This document shows positions 6,277-64,000 of a DNA stretch of 64,000 nt, one piece after another. The notes beneath the pieces were generated by a model. That model saw nothing but the letters and a program-made list of their open reading frames with translations, was not told the origin of the DNA and did not search any database. Origin of the DNA: Nannocystis sp. (lineage in GTDB: Bacteria > Myxococcota_A > Polyangia > Nannocystales > Nannocystaceae); assembly GCF_016714285.1 (NCBI RefSeq), contig NZ_JADJNN010000008.1, positions 196,669-260,668 of the forward strand, written 5' to 3'. Position 1 is the stretch's first letter; each line of letters begins with the position of its first letter. Position numbers and translations under genes: made by a program.

Positions 6277-6293
6277 GTGGCGACGCCGGTGCA

Positions 6294-6326: not shown

Positions 6327-6332
6327 AGGATC

Positions 6333-7947: not shown

Positions 7948-8001
7948 GGCCTGATCGGCGGCCTGATCGGCGGCCTGATCGGTGGCCCGATTGATGGCCC
8001 G
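7948..8001. repeat. 12-bp tandem repeat (GGCCTGATCGGC x3 plus degenerate copies)
   Basis: ggcctgatcggc ggcctgatcggc ggcctgatcggt ggcccgattgat; intergenic, just 3' of the symporter gene. Confidence 0.8.
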
Positions 8002-8020
8002 CGGTGGCCAGTCAGGCGGG

Positions 8021-9802: not shown

Positions 9803-9901
9803 TGCATGTGCCCTTCGCCGGGCGACCGGGATGATGACAGGGGGCCGGCGCGCTGCGCAACGCCGGCGATGGCGGCCGCCCTACGCGGGGTGGCGGCGTC
9901 T

Positions 9902-28761: not shown

Positions 28762-28889
28762 CCCTGAAAATCGCGGCGAGTGGCGGCCGCAGGGGCGGGC
28801 GATCCTGAACACCGGCGCAGGTGCCCGCGGCTTGCGTTCGCGCGGGGCCGCGGAGTAGGGTGTGCGCCCGTTCGCCCCAGGAAATACTC

Positions 28890-29471: not shown

Positions 29472-29485
29472 GCCGAGGAGCACGC

Positions 29486-29797
29486 GTGATGGATCGCCTG
29501 GCGCTGCTGCAGAAGTTCGTGGCCGACAAGCCAGACGACCCCTTCGCCCGCTACGGGCTGGCGATGGAGCTCAGCAAGCGGGGTCTGGCGGCCGAGGCCG
29601 ACGCGGCGTTCGTGGAGCTGATGACGCGCCACCCGAGCTACGTGCCGGCCTACCTGATGGCGGGCAACGCTCGCCTCGCGCGGGGCGACCGCGATGGCGC
29701 GCGCGAGGTGTTCACGCGGGGCGTCGCCGCGGCCACTGCGGCCGGGGACAGCCACGCGCTCGGTGAGCTGCAGGCCGCGAGGGCGGCCCTGGATTGA
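29486..29797 (+). CDS. Small TPR-like helical protein
   Basis: 103 aa, two TPR-like helix pairs. Stop overlaps the next gene's start. Confidence 0.5.
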   Translation: MMDRLALLQKFVADKPDDPFARYGLAMELSKRGLAAEADAAFVELMTRHPSYVPAYLMAGNARLARGDRDGAREVFTRGVAAATAAGDSHALGELQAARAALD

Positions 29798-30693: not shown

Positions 30694-30715
30694 GCTCGTC
30701 CTGCAGGCACGCGCC

Positions 30716-30763
30716 GCTGTATCGTTTCGGTGCAGCGCGCCGGGCTGCATCGAAACGATGCAG
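30716..30763. promoter_or_regulatory. Long imperfect inverted repeat (ctgtatcgtttcggtgcagc ... gctgcatcgaaacgatgcag) 25 bp upstream of the MVP start
   Basis: About 20-bp arms with 18/20 complementarity separated by gcgccggg. Each arm is itself near-palindromic (CTGCATCG-N3-CGATGCAG). Confidence 0.5.
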
Positions 30764-30788
30764 TCGTGCATCCAGGACGCGCGCGCGA

Positions 30789-33200
30789 GTGCCCGCTCGC
30801 GTGCGGTTCGATGTGCCGGTGGTCTTCGACTCGGGGACCAAGCGCTTCGATCGCAAGACGCTGGATCAGGCGATCCAGATGATCTCGATCGCGCCGGAGG
30901 GCTGGTACCTGGTCGTCAAGAACCCGGCGTCGGACAAGAGCCACCCGCGGACCGGGGCGCTCAACAACCTGCCGAACCTCGACACCGGCCGCAAGGTGAA
31001 CATCCCGGGGCCGGTGTCCTTCGCGCTGTGGCCGGGCCAGATGGTGCGCGTGCTGCAGGGCCACCACCTGCGCTCGAACCAGTACCTGCTGGTCCGCGTG
31101 TACGACGAGGAGGCGGCCAAGACCAACTGGAAGAACGCGGTGATCAAGCCGCAGAAGACCGGCGAGGGCGAGCCGGAGGGGGAGGGGATCAAGCACCTCG
31201 AGGCGCTGCCGGACCTGACCATGGGCAACCTGCTGGTCATCCGCGGCACCGAGGTGTCGTTCTACATCCCGCCGACCGGCGTCGAGGTGGTGCCCGACGT
31301 CGACGGCAACTACGTGCGCGAGGCGGTCACGCTCGAGCGCCTCGAGTACTGCATCCTGCTCGACGAGAACGGCTCCAAGCGCTTCATCGTCGGGCCCGAC
31401 GTGGTGTTCCCCAAGCCGACCGAGGTGATCGTGCGGATGCGGGGCTCGCGGAAGTTCCGGGCGATCGAGCTGAACGAGAACTCGGGCCTGTACCTCAAGG
31501 TCATCGCGCCCTACGAGGAGAACGGCGTCGCCTACAAGGTCGGCGACGAGATCTTCCTGACCGGCCGCGACACGATGATCTACTTCCCGCGCACGGAGCA
31601 CGCGATCGTCAAGTACGGCGATCAGGAGAAGCACCACGCGGTCGCGATCCCGGCCGGCGAGGCGCGCTACGTGCTCGACCGCATGAACGGCAAGATCAGC
31701 CTGGTGCGCGGCCCGGCGATGTTCCTGCCCGACCCGCGGCGCGAGGTGATCGTGCGCCGCGTGCTCGACCCGAAGACGGTCGCGCTGTGGTTCCCCGGCA
31801 ACCGCGAGGCCTACGAGCACAACCGCCGCCTGGCGGCCCAGAGCGCGCCGCCGTTGACGGCCGACGCCGGGGCCTTGAGCGCGCCGGCGCCGGCCCAGGC
31901 CAAGGCCCCCGCGGGCGCGCCGGCGGCGGCCAAGGCCGCGTCCGGGGCGATCGCCACCCGCGAGACCCAGGCCCCGCCGCCGCCGCCCAACGAGTTCGCG
32001 GGCGACGACTTCAACCGCAACCAGAACTTCACCGGGCCGCGGACGATCGTGCTCGACACCCGCTTCGAGGGGGCCGTGGCGATCGACGTGTGGACCGGCT
32101 ACGCGGTGCTGGTGGTCAGCAAGACCGGCGAGCGCCAGGTCGTCAGCGGGCCGCACACCCGCCTGCTCGAGTACGACGAGAACCTGCAGGTGCTCGAGCT
32201 GTCGACCGGCACGCCGAAGTCGGACGCCAACCTCTACAAGACGGTGTACCTGCGCACGCTCAACAACAAGGTGACCGACGTCGTCGAGGCCGAGACCCTC
32301 GATCTCGTGCGCGTGCACCTGCAGCTGTCGTACCGGGTGAACTTCGAGGGCGACCCGGCGCGCTGGTTCGAGGTGGAGAACTACGTGAAGTTCCTGACCG
32401 ACCACCTGCGCTCGCTGATCCGCCACGCGGTGAAGCGCCACGGGATCGAGCACTTCTACGCCAACGCGGTGAGCGTGCTGCGGGACATCGTGCTCGGCAC
32501 CGTCGGCGAGGACAGCAAGCGCCCGGGTCGCCGCTTCGACGAGAACGGGATGCGCATCTACGACGTCGAGGTGCTCGAGGTGGCGATCGGCGACGAGACG
32601 ATCGCCGAGCTGCTGGTCCAGGCCCAGCACGCGGCGGTGCAGCAGACGCTGCAGCTGGCCGCCGAGCAGCGCCGCCTCGAGGCGACCCGGCAGAGCGAGT
32701 CGATCGGGCAGCAGATCGCGGAGCTGCAGTCGCAGACGCGGCAGAAGCAGAGCGGGCTCAAGACCCTCGAGGTCGAGCAGCTGCTGCGCCACCAGCTGGC
32801 CGAGCAGGCGGCGAAGATCGAGCTGCACGAGCGCCAGCAGACGGCGCTGCTGACCGAGCAGGAGCGGGTGGGGACGATCCACCAGGCCGAGCTGGCCCGC
32901 CGCAAGGCGGCGCAGGAGCTCGAGCTGTCCCTGGCGCAGCAGAAGCTCGAGCAGAAGCTGCGCGAGCTGGCGGCCGAGGTGAGCGCGGTGGCCGAGAAGG
33001 CCCACGCGGTCTCGCCGGACCTCATCGCGGCGCTGCAGGCCTTCGGCGACAAGGCCCTGGCCGGCAAGATGGCCGAGAGCATGGCCCCGCTGGCGATCCT
33101 CGGCGGCGAGAGCGTGTCGGAGGTGCTCAGCCGGCTGCTGCGCGGGACGCCGCTGGCCCGCCTGCTCGAGGCGAAGGCCGTCGAGGCGAGCAAGACCTGA
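30789..33200 (+). CDS. Major vault protein (MVP) homolog: N-terminal MVP repeats, SPFH-like shoulder, C-terminal coiled-coil cap-helix
   Basis: Recognisable similarity to eukaryotic MVP: repeat blocks (LEYCILLDENG ~ HNYCVILDPVG; GDEIFLTG..IYFP ~ GDEWLFEGPGTYIP), shoulder block TDVVEAETLDLVRVHLQLSYRVNFE ~ [25 protein letters not shown], then about 200 aa of Q/E/A-rich coiled coil. Confidence 0.8.
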   Translation: MPARVRFDVPVVFDSGTKRFDRKTLDQAIQMISIAPEGWYLVVKNPASDKSHPRTGALNNLPNLDTGRKVNIPGPVSFALWPGQMVRVLQGHHLRSNQYLLVRVYDEEAAKTNWKNAVIKPQKTGEGEPEGEGIKHLEALPDLTMGNLLVIRGTEVSFYIPPTGVEVVPDVDGNYVREAVTLERLEYCILLDENGSKRFIVGPDVVFPKPTEVIVRMRGSRKFRAIELNENSGLYLKVIAPYEENGVAYKVGDEIFLTGRDTMIYFPRTEHAIVKYGDQEKHHAVAIPAGEARYVLDRMNGKISLVRGPAMFLPDPRREVIVRRVLDPKTVALWFPGNREAYEHNRRLAAQSAPPLTADAGALSAPAPAQAKAPAGAPAAAKAASGAIATRETQAPPPPPNEFAGDDFNRNQNFTGPRTIVLDTRFEGAVAIDVWTGYAVLVVSKTGERQVVSGPHTRLLEYDENLQVLELSTGTPKSDANLYKTVYLRTLNNKVTDVVEAETLDLVRVHLQLSYRVNFEGDPARWFEVENYVKFLTDHLRSLIRHAVKRHGIEHFYANAVSVLRDIVLGTVGEDSKRPGRRFDENGMRIYDVEVLEVAIGDETIAELLVQAQHAAVQQTLQLAAEQRRLEATRQSESIGQQIAELQSQTRQKQSGLKTLEVEQLLRHQLAEQAAKIELHERQQTALLTEQERVGTIHQAELARRKAAQELELSLAQQKLEQKLRELAAEVSAVAEKAHAVSPDLIAALQAFGDKALAGKMAESMAPLAILGGESVSEVLSRLLRGTPLARLLEAKAVEASKT

Positions 33201-33533: not shown

Positions 33534-34256
33534 CTAAACAGCTTGAGGAAGGCCGGGTTCTCCGAGGTCTGCAGGGCCCCGAGCCTGCCCTCGGGGCCCG
33601 GCCCGGGCGGCTGTACTGCCGACAGCAGCGCGCAGGGCCAGGGCACACGCCCGCCAGCTCGATCGCCGCCGGGATGGCTGCGTTGAGTGCGTTCCAGCGG
33701 ACGGAGGATCCGCTGAGGTTGGCACTCGGCCAGGTGGGGGGGACGCACGGGCATCGGACAGGCCGATGTAGCGGACCTTGCCCGCACGCACGAGGTCGGT
33801 CAGCGTGCCGATCACCTCCTCGACCGGCGTCAGCCCGTCCCATGCGTGCAGCCAGTACAGGTCGATGTAGTCGGTCTGCAGCCGGCGCAGCGAGCCCTCG
33901 AGCGCGCGGTAGATGTTCTTGCGCGCGTTGCCGCCGGCGTTCGGATCGCCGGGGCCCGGACTGAACGCGAACTTGGTCGCCAGCACCACGCGATCGCGGG
34001 TCCCGGTCTCCTTCAAATGGGTGCCGATGATCGTCTCGCTGCTGCCGTTGGTGTAGCCGTCGGCGGTGTCGACGAAGTTGCCGCCCGCCTCGAGATAGGC
34101 CGCGAGGATCGCCCGCGAGGTCGCCTCGGGCGCGCCCCAGCCCCACTCTGTCCCGAAGGTCATGGTCCCCAGGCACAGCGGGCTGACCCGCAGTCCGGTG
34201 CGTCCGAGGAGGCTGTAGTCGGCGAGGCTGGCGATCCTTGACGTCGGCTCGGTCAT
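33534..34256 (-). pseudogene. Aldo/keto reductase pseudogene (paralog of 21745..22794) with internal deletion/frameshift
   Basis: First about 165 aa align with the intact AKR up to ...VRYIGLSD, then the frame degenerates. A C-terminal AKR remnant (LNAAIPAAIELAG) lies in another frame. The central 100+ aa are missing. Confidence 0.6.
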
Positions 34257-34365
34257 GGTCGGTGGTTATGCACCCGGCGCGCCCCGGCGCGCCAGCCCTC
34301 GCGTCCGCGCGCAGCTTCGCTGTGTCCACAAGCCGCGGCCCCGCGGATACAATGCCGGGCTGGGC

Positions 34366-37300
34366 ATGCACGAGAACCCCTACGTCGGCCCGCGCGCCTT
34401 CGCGGCCGGGGAGCGGCTGTTCGGACGCGACCGCGAGCTCGCCGACCTCGTCGACCTCGTGATCGCCGAGCGCATCGTCCTGCTCTACGCCCCCTCGGGC
34501 GCGGGCAAGAGCTCCCTGCTGCACGCCGGCCTGATCCCGCGCCTGCGCGCCGAGGGCCTGGTGCCGCGGCCGGTCGCGCGGGTCGGGCTGCCGCCGCCGC
34601 TGACCTGCGCCGACCGCTTCACCCTCAGCGTGCTGCTCGGCCTCGAGGAGGATGTCCCAAAGGACAGGCAGACCCCGCTCGCCACGCTGGCCCAGCTGCG
34701 CCTGGTCGACTACCTCGATCGTCGACGCGAGGGCGACGAGCCCGAGGTCCTGATCCTCGATCAATTCGAGGAGCTGCTGACGATCGACCCCGGCGGGCGC
34801 GCGGCCAAGCTGGCCTTCATGCGCGAGCTCGGGGTCGCCCTGCGCCGCGCCGATCGCTACGCCGTGCTGGCGCTGCGCGAGGACTGGCTCGCCGCGCTCG
34901 ACCCCTACCGCGGCGCCATCCCGACCCGCCTGCGCACCAGCTACCGCCTCGATCTGCTCGGCCCGGCCGCCGCCCTCGCCGCGATCCAGGGCCCGGCCGC
35001 GGCCCGCGGGGTGCGCTTCGCCGAGTCGGCCGCCAGCAAGCTGATCGACGACCTGCGCCAGATCCGGGTCGAGACCCCCGACGGCGGCGTGCGCGTCGAG
35101 CCGGGCCCGAGCGTCGAGCCGGTGCAGCTGCAGGTCACCTGCCGCACGCTGTGGTCGCGGCTGTCCCCAGGGACAGCCGAGATCCTGCCCGCCGACCTCG
35201 CCGCGATCGGCGACGTCGACCACGCGCTCTCCGGCTTCTGCGACGACGTGCTCGCCGCCGTCGCCCGCGCCTGCGCCACCCCCGAGCGCCTGCTGCGGGC
35301 CTGGCTCGCCCGCCACCTCGTCACCGATCGCGGCCTGCGGACCCAGGTGCTGCGCGGCGCCGGGACCAGCGAGGGCCTCGACAACCGGGCCCTCGCGGCG
35401 CTGGTCGACGCCCACCTGGTCCGCGCCGACGAGCGCCGCGGCATGACCTGGTACGAGCTGGCCCACGACCGCCTGGTCGCGCCGCTGCTCGCCAGCAACG
35501 CTCGCCACGCCGAGGCCCACCTCGGGCCGCTCGAGCGCCAGGCTGAACTTTGGGACAGGCAGGCCCGACCCGAGTCGCTGCTGCTCGCCGAGCCCGCGCT
35601 GCTCGACCGCGCCGCCGCCGAGCCAGGCCCGCGTACGCCCGCCGAGCTGGCCTTCCTCGCCGCCTGCCAGCAGCTGCGCCGTCGTCGTCAACGCGAGCGC
35701 CGCAGCGTCCGCTTCATCGCCGGGCTCGCCGTGCTCGCCTGCGCTGGCCTGGTGGCAGCCAGCGTCGCCGCGGTCCGGGCCCGCCACAGCGCCGCCCGGG
35801 CCGAGGACATGCGCGGCAAGGCCGAGCGCGAGCGCAGCGAGGCGGACAGCGCCCGGGCCCAGGCCGAGGCCGCGCGCCAGCTCGCCCTCTCGCGCCAGCT
35901 CGCGGCCCAGGCCCAGACCCTCCCGCTCGTCGACTACGAGCTCGCGGCCCTGCTCGCGGTCGAGGCCAGCGCGCGCGCCCCGGCGGTCGAGGCGCGCGGC
36001 CCTCTGCTCGGCCTCGCCGCCCGCTGGCCGCGCTTTCGCGGTCTGCTCGACAGCGACAACGAGGGCGCCTACGGCCTCGCCGTCGACCCGCAGGACGGCG
36101 CCGCGTACGTCCACTTCGGCGCGCTCGGTCTGCGCAAGTACGGCCGTGGCCGCGTCGCCACGGCGCTGCAGCGCGACCCGGTCTCGGTCCTCGCATTCGC
36201 CGCTGCCGGGCCGCTGTTCGCCGCGCTCGGCAGCGAGTCCAACGTGGCCCTCCGCGCTCGCAAGGACGGCGCTGTTGTCCGCGAGATCGGGCGACCCTTC
36301 GCGCCCGCCGACACCGGCGTCGCCGCGGCCCTCTCGCCCGACGGCGCCACCCTCGTCGTCGGCAGCGATCGCGGTGAGCTCATCGCCTTCAAGGTCGCCG
36401 ACGGGCGCGAGCTGTGGCGGGTCGCCGGTCGCCCCGATCTGGGCGGCCTGGTCGTCACCGCCGACGCCGCCTTCGCCGTCGCCCGTACGGGCATCGTCCG
36501 CCACGACCTCGCCGACGGCCACGAGATCGCCGCCCTCGAGCTCCCGATCGCGAGAGTTGCGAGCTGGCCGGGGCGGGCCGTGTTCGCCGTCCTCCCGCCG
36601 TCCAGCGACCCCGCGGACGGCCTCCTCGGCCCGCCGCAGCTGGTCGACATGGACACCGCCAGCATCCACCGGCCCGTCGATCGCACGCCGGCCAACTACA
36701 CCGCGATCGCCCTCCATCCCACTGGCTTCGACATCGCCGCCAGCGTCTGTGAGGGTGAGTGTCGCAGCATCGAGCTGCTGGTCTGGGACGGCCGCAGCGC
36801 CGAGCTGCGGCTGCGCAGCTCGCTCGGCGCCGTGCGCCCCGAGGCGATCGTCTACGAGGCCAGCGGCGAGACCGTCATCGTCGCCGCCTTCGACCGCCTG
36901 CTCCGCCACGACGTCCGCCCGCCCGCGACCGTCGACCCGGACACCGCCGCGGCCGTCTTCCTCGCCGACGATCGCCTGATCACGGCGCACGCCACGGGCC
37001 TCTCGCGCTGGACCCTCGATCCCCTGCGTCGCGTCGACACCATCCCGTGGGAGCTCAACGCCGCCGACCTCCGCGTCACCCGCGATGGGCGGCGCGCCGT
37101 GATCGTCACGGGCGAGGGCCGGGCCGTCGCGTACGACCTCGAGACCCGCGCCCGCCAGTTCGACACGCCCGCGCCGATCGCTGTCACGCGCGCCGCGATC
37201 GGGGAGCTCGCCGACGGTCGCCTCGCCGTCGCCGGTCAGGACGATAGCAGCAACCAGATCGTCGCGTGGGACGCCAGCAGCGGCGCCGTCCTCGGCCGCC

Positions 37301-38038
37301 AGCGGCTCCCGGACGGCCCCTTCTCCGACGCCGGCATCTCGTGGCCCGAGTGGAGCAGCGACGGCCACATCCTCACCAGCACCTGCCTGCGCAGCACCTT
37401 TACCTGCGTCGAGTGGCGGCTGTGGCGATGGGACCCGACCCATCCCGATCGGCCGCCCGAGCAGCCCCCTCCCGGCCCTCGCGGGCCAGATCGACGACTT
37501 CGACACCAGCCCCGACGGCCGCGCCCTCGTCGTCAGCGCCGGCGGGACTCTGGTCCGCTGGAGCCTCCCGGAGCTCCGTCCGCTCGCCGTCCAGCGCAGC
37601 GACGCCGCCTGGGGCGGCAGCCTGGCCCACGGCAAGGACGGCAGCTTCATCGCCGCCGCGGGCCAGTGCGGCGACCGCCCCGACTGCCCCGGTTCCGGCC
37701 TGCAGCTGCTCGACGCCGTGACCCTGCAGCCGATCGGCGCCCCGCAGGTGATCCGCGACGGCCCCTTCTTCCGCGTCCTCGCGGCCGGCCGCGATCACGT
37801 GCTCACCCGCTCGGACCTCAGCGTCGAGCTGTGGGACCTCCGCCTCGCGCAGCTGCAGCGCAGCGCCTGTGAGCTCGCCGCCCGCGAGCTCGCGCCGGAC
37901 GAGTGGCAGCGCCACCTCGGCGACCTGCCGTACCGGCCGATCTGCAGCGAGCTGGCCGCGGCCCGGGGGGGGGGGGGGGGGGGGATCGGGACCGCCCGGC
38001 CCGGATCGTGTCCGGACCGCCCCGCGTCGGGCCCGTGA
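34366..38038 (+). CDS. nSTAND-type P-loop NTPase (NPYVGPRAF...GRDRE...APSGAGKSSL) + helical domain + TM helix + coiled coil + C-terminal beta-propeller; frameshift near 37440-37470
   Basis: N-terminal Walker A; Walker B (ILDQFEE); hydrophobic segment FIAGLAVLACAGLVAASVAAV; repeated beta-strand-rich C-terminal units. The last about 190 aa (ending ...EWQRHLGDLPYRPIC...) are in the +1 frame (ORF 37718..38038). Confidence 0.6.
37965..37984. repeat. Homopolymer run of about 20 G inside the C-terminus of the NTPase gene
   Basis: gcccgggggggggggggggggggggatcggg read directly; it would encode Gly6-7. Confidence 0.9.
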
Positions 38039-54991: not shown

Positions 54992-56414
54992 ATGAAGCAA
55001 CCGCAGGATGAGATGGTGTGGATCGACCACAACGGCGTCGCGCACCCGCTCGGCGAGGTGGCGACGGCCCGGATGGGCCAGCGCGAGGGGGCCTATCGGA
55101 TGCTGCCCACGCCGGGCCACGTGGTGTTGCTGCGCTTCACCGGCAACGACGGTCGGCGCGACCTCGAGGACGGTCCGATCGTGCGGATGGCCGGTGAGAT
55201 CACGGCCAGCGGCGACATGGCCGACGTGCTCGCGGTGCTCGGGCACATCGGCACGCGCGGCGAGCTGGTGGTGATGGATGGCGAGGTCACGCGCAGCGTG
55301 TTCTTCGAGCACGGCAACATCGTCGGCGTGCAGACCAACGCGGAGGACGAGCGCATCGGCATGCTCCTCTACAAGTACGGGGTGCTCAGCGAGGAGCAGA
55401 TCCTCCCGGTGCTCGAGCGGGCCCGCAAGGGCGACCTGTTCGGCATGGCCGCGGTCGAGCTCGGCCTGGTCTCGCAGGATGTCATCTACAAGTATCTGGC
55501 GCGCCAGGTCGAGGAGGTGGTGTTCGCGGTGCTCGCCGCGGCCGACGGCGCGTACTGCTTCCTCGACGGCTTCGACGAGGCGCGCCTGGCCTCGCGGCAG
55601 GTCGTCAGCGCGACCGCGCTGCTGATGAATCACCTCACGCGAATCGACGAGATCCGGCATCTTCGGCCCTGGATCCCGTCGGCGGAGTACGTGCCGCTGC
55701 GCCTGGCGCCGCGCTCGGCGGTGGCCAGCGAGCAGGCGGTGGTGTGGGACGCGATCGACGGCATCAGCAGCGTCGGCGACATCGGCCGCGGCACCGGGCT
55801 CGGCGAGTTCGAGGTGACCAAGCAGCTGTTTCACCTGAGCCAGGCCCAGCTGGTGGCGATCCATCCGCCGAAGCTGCGCGGCGGGATCGGTGAGGTCGTC
55901 GAGCTGGCCAACGCCGGTCTGCGGGCGATCCACCAGGCCGCCGACGCGGGCGGGCGCGGCACGGCGCTGCGCAACAACCTCATCGCCTTCTCCCGCGGCG
56001 ACTACGAGGCGCTGCTGCGCGGCGCCGGGCCCTTCGAGCACGGGGGCTTCGGCGCGCCCGCGCTCGTGGTCAACAGCGCGGGCCTCCGCCCCGCCTCCGA
56101 GGTCGAGACCTTCGTGCGCGAGATGCTCTACGACTACGTGTCCTTCGCGCTGTTCAGCGCGACGGCCTCGCTGGCCAACACCACGTTGTCGGCCGAGGTC
56201 GAGCCGCTGCTGGCCCGGCTGCGCCCGCTCGGTCAGTCGGGGCGCTATCTGGTCGGGCGTCGCCAGCCAGGTGGTCCCGGTGGCGGCGGTTCGGGGGTGG
56301 CTTCGGTGGGGCCGGGGCGTCTGGGTCGGGCGTTCGCTCGAGCGAGGACTCGGACCCGGGCGGGGCGGGCTCGTCGGGCTCGGGCGGGGCGGACTCGTCG
56401 GGCGCGGCGCTCTG
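54992..56414 (+). CDS. DUF4388-domain protein; C-terminal Gly/Ser tail reached through an apparent +2 frameshift near 56280
   Basis: N-terminal DUF4388-like region. The uninterrupted ORF runs on into an Arg-rich junk linker, while the +2 frame gives a plausible G/S-rich tail ending at TGA 56412-14. Confidence 0.45.
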
Positions 56415-56431
56415 ACGTATCCTCGCGGGCG

Positions 56432-57556
56432 ATGCCGGTCGACGACCCCCACGACCCCGCGGCGCCGACGACCCGCAAGCAGGTGTTCCCCTGCGGCCAG
56501 TGCGGATCGTCGCTGGAGTTCAAGCCGGGCAGCGACAGCATGCGCTGCCCGCATTGTGGGCACACCCAGGCGCTGCCCGGCGGCGCGGGCGGGGTGATCA
56601 GCGAGCACGACTTCCACGAGGGCATCGCTCGCGCGCGCCGCCAGCCGAGCGCCGCGCTCGTCGAGGGCGGCCACAACGTGCAGTGCGAGGGCTGCGGCGC
56701 GCAGACGGTGGTCGCCGGTCAGGCCGCGCGCTGCCCCTTCTGCGGCTCGCCGGTGGTGATGGCGATCCAGGAGCTCGGCGAGATCTTCACGCCCGAGAGC
56801 CTGCTGCCGTTCAAGCTCGACGCGCGCGCGGCCAAGGACCGCTATCAGAAGTGGGTCGGCGGCCTGTGGTTCGCGCCGAACGACCTCAAGACGCTGGCCA
56901 ATCAGCACGGCATGGACGGCGTGTACATGCCGTACTGGTCGTACGATTCGAACACCACCACCCGCTACACCGGCGAGCGCGGCGAGTACTACTACGTCAG
57001 CGAGACCTACCGCGACAGCAAGGGCGAGACGCAGACCCGCCAGGTCCGCCACACCCGCTGGTACCCGACCTCGGGCACCGTGCACGTGAGCTTCGACGAC
57101 GTGCTGGTGTGCGGCTCGCAGACCCTGCCGCGCAAGCTGCTCGAGGGGCTGGAGCCGTGGGACCTGCCGGAGCTGCGGGCCTTCGACGCCGGCTACCTCA
57201 GCGGCTTCGTCGCCGAGCGCTACAAGATCGGGCTGGAGGAGGGCTTCGTCGCCGCCGAGGCGCGCATGGTCCCGAAGATCCGCAGCGCGGTCGAGTCGGA
57301 CATCGGCGGCGACGATCAGCGGATCGGCAACCTCAACATCCATCACGCCGATGTCCGCTTCAAGCACCTGCTGCTGCCGCTGTGGATCTCGAGCTTTCGC
57401 TACAAGGAGAAGGCCTACCGCTTCACCGTCAACGCCCGCAGCGGGCAGGTCTCGGGCGAGCGGCCGTGGAGCGTGGTGAAGATCGTGCTGGCGGTGCTGG
57501 CGGTGATCGCGGTGATCGTGACGATCGCGGTGCTGGTCCAGAAGTACAAGCAGTAG
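56432..57556 (+). CDS. Zinc-ribbon protein (two CxxC...CxxC pairs) with C-terminal TM anchor
   Basis: FPCGQCGSS...RCPHCGH and QCEGCGA...RCPFCGSP motifs; terminal hydrophobic helix IVLAVLAVIAVIVTIAVLV. Confidence 0.5.
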   Translation: MPVDDPHDPAAPTTRKQVFPCGQCGSSLEFKPGSDSMRCPHCGHTQALPGGAGGVISEHDFHEGIARARRQPSAALVEGGHNVQCEGCGAQTVVAGQAARCPFCGSPVVMAIQELGEIFTPESLLPFKLDARAAKDRYQKWVGGLWFAPNDLKTLANQHGMDGVYMPYWSYDSNTTTRYTGERGEYYYVSETYRDSKGETQTRQVRHTRWYPTSGTVHVSFDDVLVCGSQTLPRKLLEGLEPWDLPELRAFDAGYLSGFVAERYKIGLEEGFVAAEARMVPKIRSAVESDIGGDDQRIGNLNIHHADVRFKHLLLPLWISSFRYKEKAYRFTVNARSGQVSGERPWSVVKIVLAVLAVIAVIVTIAVLVQKYKQ

Positions 57557-57599: not shown

Positions 57600-58787
57600 A
57601 TGCTCGCGGCCCGCATGCGGCCCGTCCCGATCACCGCGCTCAGCCTGTGCAACGGCATGGGCATGACCACCGCGGAAGTGCTGGCGGGGCTGCGCGCGGG
57701 TCGCTCCGGGCTCGGGCCCTGTCCGCCGGAGATCGGGCTCGCGGGCGCGGCGACGGTCGGGGCGATGCCGGGGCCCTTGCCGCCGCTGCCGGCCGAGTTC
57801 GCCGCCTACGACACCCGGCAGGCCCGCATCGCCGCACTCGCGCTGGCCGAGCTGGCCGGGCCGATCGAGCGCGCCAAGGGCCGCTGGGGCGCGCGTCGGA
57901 TCGCGGTGATCCTCGGCACCAGCACCGGGGGCATCGGCGCGAGCGAGCTGGCCTACGCGCATCACCAGGCGCACGGCGTGCTGCCGGACTGGTACTCGGT
58001 GGAGACCTCGCACGCGCTCGACGCGGTGCTGCCGGTGGTGTGCGGGCTGGCCGGGCTCGCGGGGCCGGCGTACATGCTGTCGACCGCGTGCTCGTCGTCG
58101 GCCAAGGTGTTCGCGGCGGCGCAGCGGCTCATTCACCTCGGGGTGTGCGACGCGGCGCTGGTCGGCGGGGTCGACAGCCTGTGCCAGCTGACGCTGCGCG
58201 GCTTCGCCGGCCTCGAGGTGCTGTCGGCGGCCCCGTGTCGGCCGTTCTCGGCGCTGCGGGCCGGCATCAACATCGGCGAGGGCGCGGCGCTGTGCCTGCT
58301 CGAGCGCGAGGGCGAGGGCCCGGCCCGCCTGCTGGCGGTCGGCGAGAGCTCCGACGCGTTTCACATGACCAGCCCGCACCCGGAGGGGCTCGGCGCGCGC
58401 CTGGCGATGGAGCGGGCGCTGGCTGGCGCGGGGCTGTCGCCCGGCGATGTCGACCACGTCAACGCCCACGGCACTGGCACGCGCCAGAACGACAGCGCCG
58501 AGGGGGCGGCGATCGCTGCGCTGTTCGGGCCGGGCATGCGGGTGGTAGCGACCAAGGGCTACACGGGGCATCAGCTCGGGGCGGCGGGCGCCACCGAGGT
58601 CGCGTTCACGGCGCTGGCGATCGCCCACGGCTTCGTGCCGGAGAGCGTCGGAGCGGCCCCGCCGGACCCGGAGATCGCGGTCCGGGTCACGACCCAGTTC
58701 GAAGCCTTGATCACGCGCGCGGCGATCAGCAACTCCTTCGCCTTCGGCGGCTCGAACGTCAGCGTGCTCGTGGGGGCGCCGGCATGA
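57600..58787 (+). CDS. Beta-ketoacyl-ACP synthase (KS-alpha, FabF/type-II PKS-like; active-site Cys/His/His present)
   Basis: TACSSS (Cys), HGTGT and GH motifs. Stop overlaps the next ATG (ATGA). Confidence 0.85.
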   Translation: MLAARMRPVPITALSLCNGMGMTTAEVLAGLRAGRSGLGPCPPEIGLAGAATVGAMPGPLPPLPAEFAAYDTRQARIAALALAELAGPIERAKGRWGARRIAVILGTSTGGIGASELAYAHHQAHGVLPDWYSVETSHALDAVLPVVCGLAGLAGPAYMLSTACSSSAKVFAAAQRLIHLGVCDAALVGGVDSLCQLTLRGFAGLEVLSAAPCRPFSALRAGINIGEGAALCLLEREGEGPARLLAVGESSDAFHMTSPHPEGLGARLAMERALAGAGLSPGDVDHVNAHGTGTRQNDSAEGAAIAALFGPGMRVVATKGYTGHQLGAAGATEVAFTALAIAHGFVPESVGAAPPDPEIAVRVTTQFEALITRAAISNSFAFGGSNVSVLVGAPA

Positions 58788-59695
58788 GCGACGGTGGTGG
58801 CATCTCCTCAGCAGAGCGTGGGCCGGAGCGTGGGCTCGGGCTGTCGCTGCGCGGGCTCGGGCTGTGGACCCCGGGCTACCCCGACGCGCTCAGCTGGTCG
58901 CAGCGACATGTCCGTGGGGACAGGTCCAACGAGGCTGCTCCGAGCGCCCCGTCTGCGCTGGGCGCCGACGCCCCGCGGGCCGAGCTGCTGCCGCCGATGC
59001 TGCGCCGCCGGACCAGCCTGCTGACCCGCATGGCCGCCGAGGTCGCGGCCCAGGCGATCGCCAGCGCCGGCTTCGATCGCGCCGAGGTGACGACGATCTA
59101 CGGATCGGTCTACGGCGAGATCCGGACCACGCTCGATCTCCTGGCCGCGCTGCAGGACCCGGCCGCGCCGCTGTCGCCGACCAAGTTCCACAACAGCGTG
59201 CACAACACGGCCGCCGGCTACGTGTCGATCGCGACCCAGAACCGGCGCGGCAACGCGGCCCTCACCGCCGGGCGCTCGACCCTGGCGATGGGGCTGATCG
59301 AGTGCGCCGGGCTGATCGCGGCGGGGCAGGGGCCGACCGTGCTGGTGATCGCCGAGGAGACGCTGCCCGAGCCGCTGGCCGCCGGCCGCAGCTACGCGCC
59401 GCTGGCCGCCGCCTTCGCGCTCGCTGCCGCGGGCGCCACGGATGTTGGGGCTGTCCCGGGGGACATGTCCTCGCGGACCTGTCGCCTGGTACAGGCGAGC
59501 CGCGGCGACCCGGCTGTGCCAAGGCTGCCGGCCGCGCTGCTCGGCAACCCCTGCGCGCTGGCGCTGGCGCTGTGCGAGCTGGCGCTGCAGCCGGGCGCCG
59601 CGTGCCTGTCGCTCGAGCCGCACCTGCCCGCGGGCGGCTGGTGCATCGAGCTCGACGCCCGCGACGGCGCGAAGGGCCCGGAGGCGGCCGCGTGA
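58784..59695 (+). CDS. KS-beta / chain-length-factor-like partner (no active-site Cys)
   Basis: 303 aa with a thiolase-like C-terminal half but no Cys/His triad. ATGA overlap upstream and GTGA overlap downstream. Confidence 0.7.
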
Positions 59696-60297
59696 GCGAG
59701 TTCCCGCCCGTGCAGGAGCTGGTGCCCCAGCGGCCGCCGATGCTGCTGCTCGACGCGGTCACGGCCTGGGACGGCGTCTCGCTCGAGTGCGTCACCACCG
59801 TGCGCGCCGACTGGCTGCTGGTCGAGGCCGGGCGCATGCCGGCGGCCGGGCTGCTGGAGGTGATGGCGCAGGCGGTCGCGGCGATGCACGGACTGCAGGG
59901 CCACGCGCGCGGCGAGCCGGTGCGCGTCGGCCTGCTGACGGGCTGCCGCGAGCTGCGCCTGCACGCGCCGGCGGTGCCGGTCGGCACGTCCCTGCGGGTG
60001 CGGGCCCGCCAGGTCGTCGACCTCGAGGCGGCGGCCGAGTTCGCGTGCAGCGTGGTCACGGCCGAGGGCCGCGCGCTCGCCGAGGGCGCGCTGCAGGTGG
60101 TGCGGGGCGAGCCAGCGGCCGCGGGCGTAGCGACGGCCGCTGGCTCCGCTGGATCCGCTGGATCCGCTGGATCCGCTGGATCCGCTGGATCCGCTGGATC
60201 CGCTGGATCCGCTGCATCCGCTGCATCCGCTGCATCCGCTGCATCCGCTGCATCATGGACCGCGCCCGGCGGACCCGAGGAAGCGCAATCAACATGA
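59692..60297 (+). CDS. Hotdog-fold 3-hydroxyacyl-ACP dehydratase (FabA/FabZ-like, APE-cluster type) with (GSA)n/(AAS)n C-terminal tail
   Basis: PPMLLLD..., EVMAQ, H..G motifs; tail encoded by 9-bp repeats gctggatcc x8 then gctgcatcc x5. Confidence 0.7.
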
Positions 60298-61016
60298 GAC
60301 CGAGAGCACTCGTCACCGGCGCGAGCCGTGGCATCGGCGCGGCGATCGCAGAGGCGCTCGCCGCCGCCGGACACCCCGTCCTGATCAACTACCGCAGCGG
60401 GCACGCGGCCGCGGAGGCGGTCGCCGAGAAGATCCGGAGCGCCGGCGGGCAGGCCACGCTGTGCCCCTTCGACGTCGCCGACGCGGCGGCCAGCGCGGCC
60501 GCGATGGCGGAGATCCTCGCCGACGCGGCGCCGCTCGGGATCGTCGTCAACAACGCCGGGGTCGCGCGCGACAACCCCTTGCCGGCGCTCGAGCCCGACG
60601 ACTGGCACCTGGTGTTGCGCACCACCCTCGACGGCTTCTACAACGTCACCCGGCCGGCGGTCATGCCGATGGTGCGGCGCAAGTGGGGCCGCATCGTCAA
60701 CATGAGCTCGGTGTCGGCGCTGATCGGCAACCGCGGCCAGGTCGCCTACGCGGCGGCCAAGGCCGGGATCCTCGGCGCGACCAAGTCGCTGGCGCTGGAG
60801 CTGGCCCGGCGCGGCATCACCGTCAACGCGGTCGCTCCCGGTCTGATCGAGACGGACATGATCAAGGACGTCCCGCTCGAGCACGTGATGCCGCGGATCC
60901 CCGCGCAGCGGCTCGGTCAACCGCACGAGGTCGCGGCGCTGGTGGCATTTTTGTGCAGCGACGCGGCCGGCTACATCACCGGGCAGACGATCGGGATCAA
61001 CGGCGGGATGGCATGA
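60294..61016 (+). CDS. fabG: 3-oxoacyl-ACP reductase (SDR, FabG-like)
   Basis: [13 protein letters not shown]...YxxxK (YAAAKAG), PG.I.T motifs; 240 aa. Confidence 0.85.
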
Positions 61017-62242
61017 ACGACGACGCATACGAGGTGATCATCGTCGGCAGCGGGCCCGCGGGCTCGACCGCCGCCAACCTGCTGGCCCAGGCCGGGCGCC
61101 GGGTGCTGGTGCTCGAGCGCGAGAGCTTCCCGCGCTTCCACATCGGCGAGTCGCTGCTGCCGATCGACCTGCCGCTGTTCGAGCGCCTCGGCCTCACGAT
61201 CGACGCCAGCGCCTACAAGTTCAAGCAGGGCGCCGAATTTTGGGACGAGCGCACCGGCGACTTCGCGTTCTTCAGCTTCGCCGACGCGATGCCCGGCACG
61301 CCCTCGCACGCGTGGCAGGTCGAGCGCGCGCTGTTCGACGACCTCCTGGCCCGCCAGGCGATCGCCCGCGGCGCGGAGATCCACTTCGGCGAGGCGGTCA
61401 CGGCGATCGAGCTCGGCGCCGAGGCGGTGGCGGTGCGCAGCGAGCGGGCCAGCTACCGCGCCCGCTTCGTGTTCGACGCGACCGGTCAGGACGCGTGGTT
61501 CGCCCGCCGGGCCCGGACGGTCGCGCCGATCCGCGAGCTCGGTCGCGCCGCCGTGTTCACCCACTTCGAGGGCCTGTCAGCGGCCGCGATCGACGAGATC
61601 GGGGCCCAGGGCAACATCAAGGTGCTGCTGGTGCCCGACGGCTGGCACTGGATCATCCCGCTGGTCGGCGGCCGCCTGAGCGTCGGCCTCGTGAAGTGGC
61701 GCGGCAAGCTCGACGAGGAGGCGCTGGAGGCCGCGCTCGCCGCGTCGCCGCTGATCCAGCGCCTGTGCGCCGGGGCGCGGCGCGGCCCGACGCGGACGAT
61801 CGCCAACTGGTCGTACAAGAACCTGCGCCCGCACGGCCCGCGCTGGGCCTGCATCGGCGACGCGGCCGCGTTCCTCGATCCGGTGTTCTCGTCCGGCGTG
61901 TCGCTGGCGATGCTCGGTGCCGAGCGGGCCGTCGACCTGCTGCTCCCGGCGCTCAGCGCTGCCGACGAGGCGGCGCCCGAGCTGATGGCGCCGTGGTCGT
62001 CGCACATGCAACCAGCCTACGACGCGTTCGAACAGCTCATCCGCCGCTTCTATCACACGCGGATGGTGCACCACCTGTTCTTCGCCGCCGAGCCCGACCC
62101 GGCGCTGCGCCGCGGCCTCATCAGCGTGCTCGCGGGCGACGTGTGGCGCCGCGATAACCCGTTTCAGGCGATGCTGGAGAGCTCCCGTCTGCAGCCCCGA
62201 GCACCCACGATATTGCCAGACCCGGAGACACAACAAGATTGA
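61013..62242 (+). CDS. Flavin-dependent halogenase (tryptophan-halogenase family)
   Basis: GSGPAGS FAD motif, WxWxIP (GWHWIIP) and F.DP.FSSG motifs. Confidence 0.8.
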
Positions 62243-62342
62243 TACGTAATCCGCATTACGGAACTTACCGAATGTGATGTTGATGCGCCCTGGCCAGGGT
62301 TGTTGCAATTTCGCGCCAAAGATTGTTCTCTCGACATGTCGC

Positions 62343-63548
62343 ATGTCGAAGCCGCAAGCCACCCCCGAGGTCCTTCGTTCGATCACCGCGCCGATGCTGG
62401 CCACGCTGGCCATGTTGTTGGGCGCCTGCCTGTCGCCCAACGGTGGCGACACGAGCACCGATGTGAACCTCAGCAGCGACACGGGCGGTGTGCTGTCGAC
62501 CAGCGGCGCGAGCGGGTCGTCGACCTTCGACGAGATCATGACGACGACCGAGGACTGGGACACCAGCGCGGGCTCGGGCTCCGAGTCGAGCGAGTCGAGC
62601 GCGGCCGAGGGCAGCAGCGGCAGCGGCAGCACGAGCGACACCCCCGCGAGCTGCGGCGACGGCGTCGTCCAGGCGCCGGAGGAGTGCGACTTCGGGATCG
62701 ATAACGCCAACGACGCCGGCTGCACCGCCGACTGTCACCTCGCCACCTGCGGCGACGGCCTCGTGCAGAAGGACGTCGAGGCCTGCGACGACGGGCTCAA
62801 CGACGGCGCCTACGGCGGCTGCGCGGTCGACTGCAAGGCGCTCGCGCCCCACTGCGGCGACGGCGAAGTTCAGGACGACTACGAGGCCTGCGACCAGACC
62901 GACCCCAAGACCGGCTGCATCGCGTCCACCTGCGAGTACGCGAAGAGCTGCAAGCAGATCCGCGACGCCCGTCCGGACGACCTGATGCTGCAAGACGGCC
63001 TTTACTTCATCAAGCCGCTCGACGCCAAGCTCAAGGTGCTCTGCGATATGGACGCGGACGGCGGCGGCTACACATTCCTGAAGGTCGCGCTGCCAGGGAT
63101 GGTCAACTACAACGCCGCGCAAGCCGAGGCCAAGTGCAAGGAGTACGGCATGCAGCTGCTGGTCCCACGCTCGCCGGAGCACGTCGCTGCCGCCGTGATG
63201 ATCGCCAATTCGACGCTGCTGGTGCCGCTCGGCGGCGGCAGTGCCAAGAGCGATCTGAACTACATGAAGATCCTCGGCATCTACCCGGCCGTCGAGAACA
63301 TGACCTGTATGGACAAGCCGCTCAACAGCACGGATTGTCCGCAGTGGAAGGCCGCTGGCGACAAGTTCTGGGTCACCGACAAGGGGGTCCCCGGGGCGCC
63401 CGGGGCCAAGAATTGTGTGAAGTGCTCCAACGCCTACTATTGGAAGGTCGAGGGCGTGCTCGACTTCTATGAGACCCCGTGGAACGCCGGCGTCGGCGCG
63501 GAGACGGGGCTGTTCATGTGCGACACCGGCGACAAGATGCCGCTGTGA
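62343..63548 (+). CDS. Lipoprotein with Myxococcus cysteine-rich repeats and C-terminal fibrinogen-related-like domain
   Basis: Lipobox LLGAC; CGDG.VQ..EECD repeats; LCDMDADGGGYTFLKV resembles the FReD core (CDMDTDGGGWT). Confidence 0.5.
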   Translation: MSKPQATPEVLRSITAPMLATLAMLLGACLSPNGGDTSTDVNLSSDTGGVLSTSGASGSSTFDEIMTTTEDWDTSAGSGSESSESSAAEGSSGSGSTSDTPASCGDGVVQAPEECDFGIDNANDAGCTADCHLATCGDGLVQKDVEACDDGLNDGAYGGCAVDCKALAPHCGDGEVQDDYEACDQTDPKTGCIASTCEYAKSCKQIRDARPDDLMLQDGLYFIKPLDAKLKVLCDMDADGGGYTFLKVALPGMVNYNAAQAEAKCKEYGMQLLVPRSPEHVAAAVMIANSTLLVPLGGGSAKSDLNYMKILGIYPAVENMTCMDKPLNSTDCPQWKAAGDKFWVTDKGVPGAPGAKNCVKCSNAYYWKVEGVLDFYETPWNAGVGAETGLFMCDTGDKMPL

Positions 63549-63618: not shown

Positions 63619-64000
63619 TCAGAGCCCGGGCGCCGCGAAGGGCGCGAGGAACTCGGCGACGCGCCCGCGGATCGCGGCGCAGCGCGCTGGATCGCCGCCC
63701 GCCGCCGCGACCTCGATCGCGTCCGCGATCAGCTCGCCCACCGTGCCCATGTGTTCGGTGACGAGGCCGCGTGAGGTGATCGCCGCGAGGCCGACGCGCA
63801 GCCCCGAGGGATCGAAGGGCTTGCGGGGATCGAAGGGGATCGAGTTGGCGTTGAGCTCGATGCCGCAGCCGTTGAGCACGTGGGCGATCTTGCGGCCGCT
63901 GAGCTCGCGGGGGCTGAGGTCGACGAGCATCAGGTGATTGTCGGTGCCGCCGGTGACGAGGCGGAAGCCGCGGCCGATCAGGACCTCGGCGAGGGCGCGG
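63619..64000 (-). CDS. glyA: Serine hydroxymethyltransferase, C-terminal part (N-terminus beyond window)
   Basis: LVTGGTDNHLMLVDL...NANSIPFDP...SGLRVG conserved SHMT C-terminal blocks. Confidence 0.8.
   Translation of the reverse strand, partial: RALAEVLIGRGFRLVTGGTDNHLMLVDLSPRELSGRKIAHVLNGCGIELNANSIPFDPRKPFDPSGLRVGLAAITSRGLVTEHMGTVGELIADAIEVAAAGGDPARCAAIRGRVAEFLAPFAAPGL

Follow-up and report, generated by a model that had tools for sequence, protein, structure and literature searches.

A halogenase-bearing ApeO/C/P/Q cassette of Nannocystis is probably one half of an aryl-polyene gene cluster split between two loci

The 64-kb stretch of DNA that we analysed (the window) contains a compact cassette of five open reading frames on the plus strand, followed by a gene for a cysteine-rich protein. 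The initial annotation had described the cassette as encoding a ketosynthase (KS), a chain-length factor (CLF), a dehydratase, a ketoreductase (KR) and a halogenase at 57600-62242; all five reading frames were found at these coordinates, and Pfam profile searches back their identities. The assignments below also draw on NCBIfam models with curated cut-offs and on comparison with proteins of solved structure (PDB).

57600..58787, plus strand: predicted ApeO-type elongating ketosynthase (395 aa; alternative start at 57615)
58784..59695, plus strand: predicted ApeC-type chain-length-factor partner, half-size and KS-like, without the catalytic Cys
59692..60297, plus strand: ApeP-like hotdog dehydratase subunit, Glu present and His absent, with a C-terminal Gly/Ser/Ala repeat tail
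60294..61016, plus strand: predicted ApeQ-type 3-ketoacyl-ACP reductase (adh_short/KR)
61013..62242, plus strand: predicted flavin-dependent halogenase of the phenol/pyrrole (carrier-tethered substrate) type (PF04820, 98.6 bits)
62274..63548, plus strand: Cys-rich secreted repeat protein, the downstream neighbour (NCBIfam myxo_disulf_rpt plus a GGGWT domain)

The four junctions within the cassette, said earlier to be ATGA or GTGA, read ATGA, GTGA, ATGA and ATGA in order. These 4-bp overlaps are real, yet no statistical oddity: genes within operons of these genomes are normally joined in this way, three such overlaps occur at the unlinked partner locus described below, and their conservation in orthologous cassettes is partial (three of the four junctions in N. 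bainbridge and in locus L088, one in L004). An ATG 15 nt further downstream, chosen in the annotation of the assembly GCA_016717175.1, is an alternative start for the KS. Third-position GC in the cassette reading frames is 0.83-0.95, against approximately 0.5-0.63 at position 2, which is a coding signature for a genome of 72% GC. A promoter scan found no sigma-70-like site upstream of the KS gene, and terminator-like sites were no more numerous than expected from shuffled sequence.

The KS matches both the N- and C-terminal ketoacyl-synthase families of Pfam and has the catalytic triad Cys164/His290/His324. It passes the NCBIfam model PRK09185 (440 bits; cut-off 407) and fails those for FabF (TIGR03150; 200 bits, cut-off 494) and FabB (107 bits, cut-off 630). 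Its best solved relatives are XdApeO (6QSP_A, 245 bits) and AbApeO (7F28_B, 234 bits), with solved FabF at approximately 157 bits and ApeR (7F27) at 100 bits; the chains of 6QSP, 7F28 and 7F27 are identified as Ape proteins in PMC8358021. The second protein, whose gene overlaps that of the KS by 4 bp (ATGA), matches Ketoacyl-synt_2 (PF13723, 118 bits), and its only solved relatives are the ApeC chains 7F28_A (AbApeC) and 6QSP_B (XdApeC). By these scores the KS is ApeO-type and its partner ApeC-type, neither being FabF/FabB-type, and we predict that they form a heterodimeric KS-CLF pair.

The dehydratase belongs to the ApeP-like family PF22817, has 6QSR_B as its best solved relative and fails the FabZ model (23 bits, cut-off 155). 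In alignment the Glu of LLEVMAQ is kept and the position of FabZ GHFPG has no His, as is the case in 19 orthologues; these positions were placed with what we take to be the E. coli FabZ sequence. Its low-complexity tail, encoded by a tandem repeat (9 bp x 13.1, at 60137-60254), varies. The KR scores highest against 7CZC (249 bits; deposited as FabG, its identity otherwise not established), followed by AbApeQ (7CAW/6NRP, 244 bits) and 4IIU from E. coli CFT073 (231 bits), a putative FabG and in our reading the c1187 reductase of the APE cluster; the range for genuine FabG proteins is 166-188 bits. Although it lies above the cut-off of the NCBIfam FabG model NF004200, the KR is nearer to ApeQ than to FabG by score. 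By sequence comparison all four polyketide synthase proteins, with scores far higher for Ape than for FAS proteins, are of the aryl-polyene (Ape) type and not of the fatty acid synthase (FAS) type.

The fifth protein bears every flavin-halogenase signature and is predicted to be a halogenase. It scores far above the cut-off of 21 bits for PF04820 (Trp_halogenase), and its motifs G12xG14xxG17, K71, W211xW213xI215P216 and F287xDPxFSxG295 do not vary among 16 orthologues. Its relatives of solved structure are 3NIX, 8ZOP, Bmp2, CndH, ChlB4, CmlS, Mpy16 and PltA, with no tryptophan halogenase among them at E<1e-5. With the carrier-protein-dependent phenol/pyrrole halogenases Bmp2, PltA, Mpy16, CndH and CmlS it shares GxGxxG, the Lys, WxWxIP and FxxPxxSxG, as well as a short architecture of approximately 400 aa without the substrate domain of tryptophan halogenases; it is distant from them (113-138 bits) and has a distinct conserved C-terminal motif of 15 residues common only to 3NIX. 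The latter, its best solved relative, is an uncharacterised flavoprotein, presumably from Cytophaga hutchinsonii, on which a literature search found nothing. Wherever a homologous locus has at least 46% identity and enough flank, the halogenase gene adjoins Ape-type KS genes, and no flavin reductase gene lies at the cassette or at the partner locus. The presumed substrate is an aryl(-polyenoyl)-ACP, and halogenated APE head groups are known from xanthomonadin. We also considered CmlS-like aliphatic halogenation of beta-ketoacyl intermediates, since CmlS is the top NCBIfam model; we rejected this as the main reading because the score (151 bits) is far under the cut-off (900 bits) and the clade occurs within aryl-polyene clusters that also contain a tyrosine ammonia-lyase (TAL) and a ligase.

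The absence from this region of ACP, acyltransferase, starter-unit and MMPL export genes, remarked on in the initial annotation, holds: across most of the window and in the 10 kb downstream of it (followed through locus L001), no called reading frame encodes any of these or a ligase, and no scanned reading frame of the window outside the cassette matches an APE-type Pfam family. The genes met there, considered as APE partners, are all housekeeping or regulatory and include RecQ, a DnaJ-type chaperone, lipoyl synthase, SHMT, STPKs, a vault-like protein, an OPT transporter and a STAND NTPase. Homologues of the Cys-rich protein follow the halogenase in L002, L004, L006, L088 and L090; the family has multiple copies, and another one lies 8 kb from the partner locus. 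We rejected the protein as a sixth pathway member: synteny holds in the stand-alone clade, but the family is multi-copy and missing from full clusters, and the tie of the protein to the cassette is probably one of synteny only.

The initial annotation had left the missing genes as either elsewhere or absent, and they are found in a conspecific genome. The assembly GCA_016717175.1, which matches the window at 99.4-99.6% DNA identity over 13 kb and so belongs to the same species, carries a partner locus (L086) on contig JADKFZ010000003, a different contig from that of the cassette; it was identified in this conspecific assembly and not in the window's own strain. Genes were placed by tblastn mapping. 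The partner locus encodes an ACP (the single ACP gene seen), an AMP-ligase fused to an ApeI-like domain (PF22818), a GT2 glycosyltransferase, an LpxL-type acyltransferase (Lip_A_acyltrans), an aromatic lyase (Lyase_aromatic, TAL), a 4HBT thioesterase, LolA_3, MMPL and DUF3261, and contains no KS, CLF or ApeP. N. punicea carries the same locus intact (L087). The dedicated ACP and aryl-acid adenylating enzyme are present at both L086 and L087, as is the complete set for envelope attachment and export (acyltransferase, glycosyltransferase, LolA-like, MMPL/RND and DUF3261 proteins), none of which is in the window. The hotdog pair is itself divided: the ApeP-like subunit lies in the window and the ApeI-like one is fused to the ligase at the partner locus, where it has FRGHFxGxPVLPG (with the His) and no Glu, so that the two are complementary in these residues. 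The annotation of the conspecific assembly divides the ligase/ApeI gene into two pieces (119 and 457 aa), which may reflect misassembly or a genuine frameshift. A divergent SDR gene beside the partner locus could encode an alternative KR.

Given the contig positions, the cassette and the partner locus are at least approximately 380 kb apart in GCA_016717175.1; the cassette lies at 9.96-9.98 Mb in N. exedens and the partner locus at 4.74-4.77 Mb in N. punicea. N. exedens, N. bainbridge and several metagenome-assembled genomes (MAGs) have the cassette with the same gene order and content, at 54-79% protein identity, and in every Nannocystis genome examined it stands by itself, surrounded by housekeeping genes. 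Full APE clusters that include the cassette occur in Enhygromyxa, Nannocystaceae ST9 and Polyangia MAGs. A Myxococcales MAG (L021) has one contiguous cluster of ancestral type, in which the KR, halogenase, KS, second KS-like and dehydratase genes lie, in this order, between TAL/thioesterase and LolA; taking those five genes away leaves the partner locus of Nannocystis with its gene order, except for a leading LPLAT gene that the latter lacks. In one relative, the halogenase P0054 and the MMPL protein P0180 are both assigned to one 106,299-bp ENA contig, which suggests a distance of approximately 50 kb. A one-cluster layout was found in L021 and in Enhygromyxa/ST9 and not in Nannocystis; contiguity is typical of the APE family but not strictly defining.

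We consider it very likely that the cassette is the ApeO/C/P/Q and halogenase half of a genus-conserved Nannocystis APE cluster that is split into two loci and probably makes a halogenated aryl-polyene lipid. From the contents of the two loci we infer the starter unit, the site and timing of halogenation, the physical pairing of ApeP with ApeI and the product. The ammonia-lyase of the partner locus would make an aryl acid starter, probably 4-coumarate, which the ApeH-like AMP-ligase would load onto the dedicated ACP. The ApeO:ApeC heterodimer of the window would extend it iteratively with malonyl units, ApeQ would reduce every beta-keto group, and a heterodimer of the window ApeP (Glu) and the ligase-fused ApeI domain (His) would dehydrate the 3-hydroxy intermediates to give a conjugated polyene on the ACP. 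The halogenase would chlorinate or brominate the phenolic head group, probably while ACP-bound, and the thioesterase, acyltransferase, glycosyltransferase and LolA/MMPL/DUF3261 proteins of the partner locus would serve lipid anchoring and transfer to the outer membrane. ApeR, the initiating second KS, is present in Enhygromyxa/ST9 and Planctomycetota relatives and was found at neither Nannocystis locus; its absence would be tolerable, because an E. coli apeR deletion mutant still produces APE lipid (PMC8253772) and ApeO-ApeC of A. baumannii makes full-length polyene in vitro without a further KS (PMC8358021). A more specific proposal is that the chain-building and halogenase half is kept as a separate genus-wide operon, as a shared polyene-forming and halogenating module that serves more than one carrier protein or pathway and is regulated independently of export, with ApeR-free initiation and an ApeI domain encoded in trans; we regard this as unlikely.

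The core of an aryl-polyene/xanthomonadin-type pathway recognised in the initial annotation is supported, the KS and its partner being of ApeO and ApeC type. Neither of the two outcomes that it named as contrary, a FAS-type KS/CLF pair and a genome free of APE partners, was found, as the Ape-type scores and the conspecific partner locus attest. Its suggestion of a minimal, self-contained halogenating module, possibly modifying fatty acids, is unsupported. Such an autonomous type II module would rely on the ACP and FabZ/FabA of housekeeping FAS, would produce halogenated polyenoic or fatty acids, and would need no APE loading or export genes. The isolation of the cassette in Nannocystis would suit it, as would the aliphatic acyl substrate of CmlS and the possibility that APE ketosynthases accept malonyl-AcpP (PMC8253772). 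We nevertheless judge it quite improbable: the cassette has no ACP, starter enzyme or release enzyme, the dehydratase is without its catalytic His, the CmlS score is far too low, and an exactly complementary locus exists in the conspecific genome, the two being fused in relatives. The cassette is therefore better read as half of a split cluster, as it has no carrier protein and its catalytic His is supplied by the partner locus. That it is a decaying, non-functional remnant of an ancestral APE cluster is very improbable, since its detachment, the lack of ApeR and the variable dehydratase tail are set against intact reading frames with strong coding GC3, catalytic residues kept in KS and halogenase, an identical set and order of five genes across species at the identities given above, and a partner locus likewise intact in N. 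punicea. Primary fatty-acid paralogues (FabF/FabZ/FabG) beside an unrelated flavoprotein monooxygenase or reductase, to which the FabG call for the KR and the weak matches of the halogenase to geranylgeranyl-reductase and UbiH families might point, are hardly credible given a KS that passes PRK09185 and fails the FabF and FabB models, an ApeC-like partner without FAS counterpart, a KR closer to ApeQ, and invariant WxWxIP and catalytic Lys.

As half of a split cluster, the cassette shares the ApeO:ApeC KS-CLF, the ApeP subunit and the ApeQ KR with the APE clusters (apeA-R) of E. coli CFT073, Xenorhabdus doucetiae and Acinetobacter baumannii, and the partner locus shares ACP, ApeH ligase, ApeI, ApeJ (glycosyltransferase), ApeK (thioesterase), LolA-like ApeL, MMPL ApeM and DUF3261 ApeN. 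In contrast to these clusters, the Nannocystis genes lie in two distant loci, with one ACP gene seen, no ApeR, ApeI fused to the ligase, a halogenase, no ApeB-type methyltransferase seen, and TAL instead of a 4-HBA starter from ubiquinone metabolism; ApeC adjoins ApeO and is translationally coupled to it, whereas E. coli encodes ApeC far from ApeO. The xanthomonadin (pig) clusters of Xanthomonas and the related clusters of Lysobacter and Azoarcus (arcuflavin) likewise place an unusual KS/CLF pair beside a flavin halogenase gene, have a halogenated aryl-polyene pigment as product and share the LpxL-type acyltransferase, GT2 and MMPL (PMC3691225, PMC3949708). Nannocystis differs in being a myxobacterium, in its split cluster and in having TAL, with no XanB2 chorismatase-type starter enzyme seen; halogenase homologues in Rhodanobacteraceae, with Xanthomonas itself not sampled, are only 37-40% identical to that of the window. 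Initiation by TAL and a ligase is established for the flexirubin clusters of Bacteroidetes (Chitinophaga pinensis, Flavobacterium) (PMC3992019), whose FlxB model the KR also matches at 280 bits, below the cut-off of 340. These clusters differ in phylum, in not being split and in their dialkylresorcinol genes DarA/DarB, seen at neither Nannocystis locus.

The layout is unusual in being split; the cassette itself is an ordinary representative of a gene-cluster family that is very widespread. APE clusters are regarded as the bacterial biosynthetic gene cluster family with the widest distribution, and their halogenated variants, the xanthomonadins, are classic chemotaxonomic pigments. Understanding of the family as a whole is unchanged, and the importance of the finding is modest. 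A stand-alone KS/CLF/dehydratase/KR/halogenase operon should not be taken for a minimal autonomous pathway, and cluster-mining tools that depend on contiguity would overlook the partner and list the arylpolyene region here as truncated or orphan. The division of His and Glu between the ligase-fused ApeI and ApeP offers a testable sequence-level rationale for the obligate ApeI:ApeP heterodimer. The searched literature held no report of APE pigments in Nannocystis, and the prediction is that Nannocystis makes a halogenated aryl-polyene lipid.

The window has a G+C content of ~72%, and long spurious ORFs are therefore plentiful in it. Direct inspection of the ORFs, third-position GC (0.83-0.95 across the five genes, all in frame), and Pfam assignments bear out the five-gene cassette described in the initial annotation, including the identities of its genes.

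Features of the cassette and of the gene that follows it
57600-58787, + strand: ketosynthase (KS), with Pfam ketoacyl-synt N and C domains
58784-59695, + strand: chain length factor (CLF)-type second protein, Pfam Ketoacyl-synt_2 (PF13723)
59692-60297, + strand: dehydratase (DH), Pfam ApeP-like hotdog (PF22817) followed by a low-complexity tail
60294-61016, + strand: ketoreductase (KR), Pfam adh_short/KR
61013-62242, + strand: halogenase, Pfam Trp_halogenase (PF04820)
62274-63548 (possible start 62337): Cys-rich secreted repeat protein, with myxo_disulf_rpt, a fibrinogen-like GGGWT domain, and faint DUF4215

The junctions between the cassette genes read ATGA, GTGA, ATGA, and ATGA, exactly the 4-bp overlaps that had been claimed. 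Such overlaps are an everyday operon junction in these genomes; they are kept only in part in orthologous cassettes, and there are three as well in an unlinked partner locus that carries the loading, tailoring, and export half of an aryl polyene (APE) cluster.

A Pfam scan of called ORFs over most of the window identified a response regulator, a histidine kinase, Ser/Thr kinases, an alanine symporter, an OPT transporter, a STAND NTPase, an esterase, a GT2, an aminotransferase, aldo-keto reductases, a DnaJ-type chaperone, lipoyl synthase, RecQ, and a GDSL protein. The cassette is followed 3' by the Cys-rich protein and then SHMT; the near-identical contig of the conspecific assembly GCA_016717175.1 extends past the end of the window and adds a kinase and TrpG/TrpC. 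Neither the scanned window ORFs nor the downstream stretch of that contig encodes an ACP, ligase, acyltransferase, ammonia-lyase, or exporter, in keeping with the earlier observation that ACP, acyltransferase, starter-unit, and MMPL genes are lacking nearby. Just 5' of the cassette (54992-57556) a protein with DUF4388/PatA_N and zinc-ribbon domains is encoded by one 854-aa ORF; its counterpart on the near-identical contig (L001, 4033-6598) is annotated as two genes (474 and 374 aa), which suggests that the strains or assemblies differ by an indel or frameshift. A 920-aa ORF (30438-33200) containing a Major Vault Protein shoulder, Vault_3 repeats, and SPFH/Band_7 is a bacterial vault-protein-like gene, and a 1217-aa nSTAND1 NTPase (34219-37872), the C-terminal region of which resembles a PQQ/beta-propeller, may be a STAND protein acting in conflict or signaling.

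All of the flavin-dependent halogenase signatures are present (GxGxxG, Lys71, W211xW213xI215P216, and F287xDPxFSxG295), and they are invariant in 16 orthologs with identity down to 53%. Its solved relatives are 3NIX (an uncharacterized flavoprotein), 8ZOP, and the phenol/pyrrole halogenases Bmp2, CndH, ChlB4, CmlS, Mpy16, and PltA; there is no tryptophan halogenase among its structure matches. Orthologs are numerous in Nannocystis and other Myxococcota, and are also found in Planctomycetota. Scanning reference genomes with the ortholog alignment yielded 80 loci, onto which the five window proteins were mapped by tblastn. Ape-type KS genes adjoin the halogenase at every locus where it is at least about 46% identical and the flank is sufficient; most loci at this identity encode the CLF, DH, and KR as well, and gene order varies. 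The exceptions number four (L013, L023, L030, and L031), each with the halogenase within 3 kb of a contig end. Homologs below about 40% identity are mostly found in unrelated contexts (Sorangium, Verrucomicrobiota, Acidobacteriota, and most Rhodanobacteraceae).

Clustering of neighboring ORFs, with representatives identified by Pfam, showed that the cassette sits inside full APE-type clusters in Enhygromyxa salina, Nannocystaceae ST9, Polyangia MAGs, and some Planctomycetota. These encode envelope and loading functions (MMPL, LolA-like, DUF3261, ACP, and AMP-ligase), LPLAT and LpxL-type acyltransferases, an aromatic ammonia-lyase, an O-methyltransferase, and a GT2. The stripped five-gene form, always with a Cys-rich protein after it, occurs in the window, in N. 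bainbridge and N. exedens, and in L004/5, L006, and L088 (MAGs or contigs). This protein follows the halogenase in all stand-alone cassettes examined (those of N. bainbridge and N. exedens and of L004, L006, and L088), is missing from the full APE clusters, and belongs to a multi-copy family. Two Planctomycetota MAGs (L003 and L007) contain another reduced cluster form, KS-KS2-ApeP-second KS ... halogenase-LPLAT, directly 5' of a nuo (NADH dehydrogenase) operon, with no KR seen in the flanks.

With the MMPL exporter from the ST9 cluster as the query for the missing half, we found relatives (47-48% identity) in N. punicea, N. pusilla, Nannocystis sp. RBIL2, and Nannocystis MAGs. In GCA_016717175.1, the contig 4 of which is 99.4-99.6% identical to the window, the MMPL relative is on contig 3, in a locus (60.8-83.2 kb) encoding, in order, a divergent SDR, ACP, a pair of small proteins, an AMP-ligase that carries an ApeI-like domain (PF22818) at its C terminus, GT2, a lipid-A-type acyltransferase, a Lyase_aromatic-4HBT thioesterase fusion, LolA_3, MMPL, and DUF3261. 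This partner locus, also present in N. punicea, contains no KS, CLF, or ApeP. The APE genes first described as elsewhere or absent do exist elsewhere in the conspecific assembly, on another contig; judged by where each half lies on its contig, at least about 380 kb separate them in that assembly. The AMP-ligase/ApeI gene is annotated as 119 + 457 aa in this assembly (L086, 3785-5638) and as a single 642-aa protein in N. punicea (L087, 3360-5288); the split annotation may reflect an assembly frameshift or a true disruption of the loading enzyme. A Myxococcales MAG (L021) carries one contiguous cluster, LPLAT-ACP-p200-ligase/ApeI-GT2-LpxL-AT-TAL/TE-[KR-HAL-KS-KS2-DH]-LolA-MMPL-DUF3261, which, minus the KR-HAL-KS-KS2-DH segment, is the Nannocystis partner locus in the same order, the leading LPLAT having no counterpart there. 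The gene content of the two halves is therefore exactly complementary.

The best structure match of the dehydratase is 6QSR_B, which we take to be part of the X. doucetiae ApeI:ApeP complex, and its FabZ match is weak; the ApeP-like Pfam assignment independently supports an ApeP-type enzyme. A hotdog active site comprises one His and one Glu assembled across the dimer interface, the catalytic residues of FabZ being His54 and Glu68. In an alignment of the window protein, 19 orthologs, X. doucetiae ApeP, and E. coli FabZ, the ApeP family keeps the Glu (LLEVMAQ), but no His is conserved where FabZ has GHFPG; the window protein has Arg at that place. In the partner locus, the ApeI-like domain carries the motif FRGHFxGxPVLPG, with the His and without the Glu. 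Because the site needs both residues across the interface, we infer from these sequences that a single complete active site is possible only when ApeP and the ApeI domain pair, in agreement with the ApeI:ApeP heterocomplexes reported from X. doucetiae (summarized in PMC8253772). That the cassette is instead an autonomous minimal module working on the ACP of primary fatty-acid synthesis (FAS) is disfavored: it encodes no carrier, starter, or release enzyme, its dehydratase lacks the His, and an exactly complementary partner locus exists. The Gly/Ser/Ala tail of the dehydratase is encoded by a 9-bp tandem repeat, CCGCTGGAT (60137-60254; 13.1 copies, 98% matches), which is 54 nt (6 units) shorter in GCA_016717175.1 (183 aa versus 201 aa in the window); the orthologs of N. 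exedens and N. bainbridge (148-151 aa) lack the tail. The repeat looks like a strain-variable in-frame VNTR.

Also disfavored is a decaying remnant of an APE cluster, as the ORFs are intact, the catalytic residues are kept, and the five genes are conserved among species at protein identities of 54-79%. Window positions 28856-30695 share 77-78% DNA identity with N. punicea (L087, 15010-16731) and an ENA contig (L089, 3664-5501), in both of which the match directly adjoins the DUF3261 end of the partner locus, implying a rearrangement breakpoint near 30.7 kb. Because this segment (28.9-30.7 kb) matches genes abutting the partner locus, the comparison suggests that the halves were formerly much closer, tens of kilobases apart, and later moved further apart in the lineage of the window. 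A block of SHMT, Ser/Thr kinase, and trp genes is 5' of the cassette in N. exedens, N. bainbridge, and L088, and 3' and inverted in the species of the window (window 63619-64000 and L001 12608-19763 versus L090, the N. exedens cassette, 1-9965); since the block flips side and orientation, the cassette is at a local inversion boundary.

The best solved relatives of the KS are the ApeO proteins of X. doucetiae (6QSP_A, 245 bits) and A. baumannii (7F28_B, 234 bits), versus about 157 bits for FabF, 121 for 6KXD (presumably Iga11), and 100 for ApeR (7F27), the initiating KS of APE clusters. The KS contains the triad Cys164/His290/His324, passes NCBIfam PRK09185, and fails the NCBIfam FabF/FabB equivalog models by a wide margin. 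The only solved relatives of the second protein are the ApeC chains 7F28_A and 6QSP_B, with no match to FAS-type or other structures. The top match of the reductase is 7CZC (249 bits), deposited as FabG; A. baumannii ApeQ (7CAW/6NRP) scores 244 bits, the E. coli CFT073 structure 4IIU (putative FabG, which we take to be the APE-cluster reductase c1187) 231 bits, and genuine FabG 166-188 bits. The identities of 6QSP, 7F28, 7F27, 7CAW, and 6NRP are from PMC8358021 and PMC8041823. These family-model and structure-database scores rule out primary-FAS paralogs.

By homology to the reconstituted X. doucetiae pathway and E. coli genetics (PMC8253772, PMC8358021), and to flexirubin initiation, which uses a TAL and a ligase (PMC3992019), the two halves probably act in one pathway. 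The ammonia-lyase would generate a putative aryl acid starter, which the ligase would place onto the ACP; rounds of ApeO:ApeC elongation, ApeQ reduction, and ApeP:ApeI dehydration would then give an aryl-polyenoyl-ACP. The phenolic head group would be halogenated by the halogenase (halide and timing presumptive), as xanthomonadins are brominated in the same way (PMC3691225, PMC8253772), and partner-locus enzymes would join the product to lipid and export it. The missing ApeR is no obstacle: E. coli deleted for apeR continues to produce APE lipid (PMC8253772), and ApeO-ApeC alone produces the full polyene in vitro (PMC8358021).

Halogenated APEs have already been described, as have KS/CLF pairs beside halogenase genes in xanthomonadin-type clusters (PMC3691225) and APE clusters of marine Nannocystineae such as Enhygromyxa and Plesiocystis (PMC6226438). 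What sets the present case apart is its clean division between two complementary loci, Nannocystis-wide, together with the loss of ApeR.
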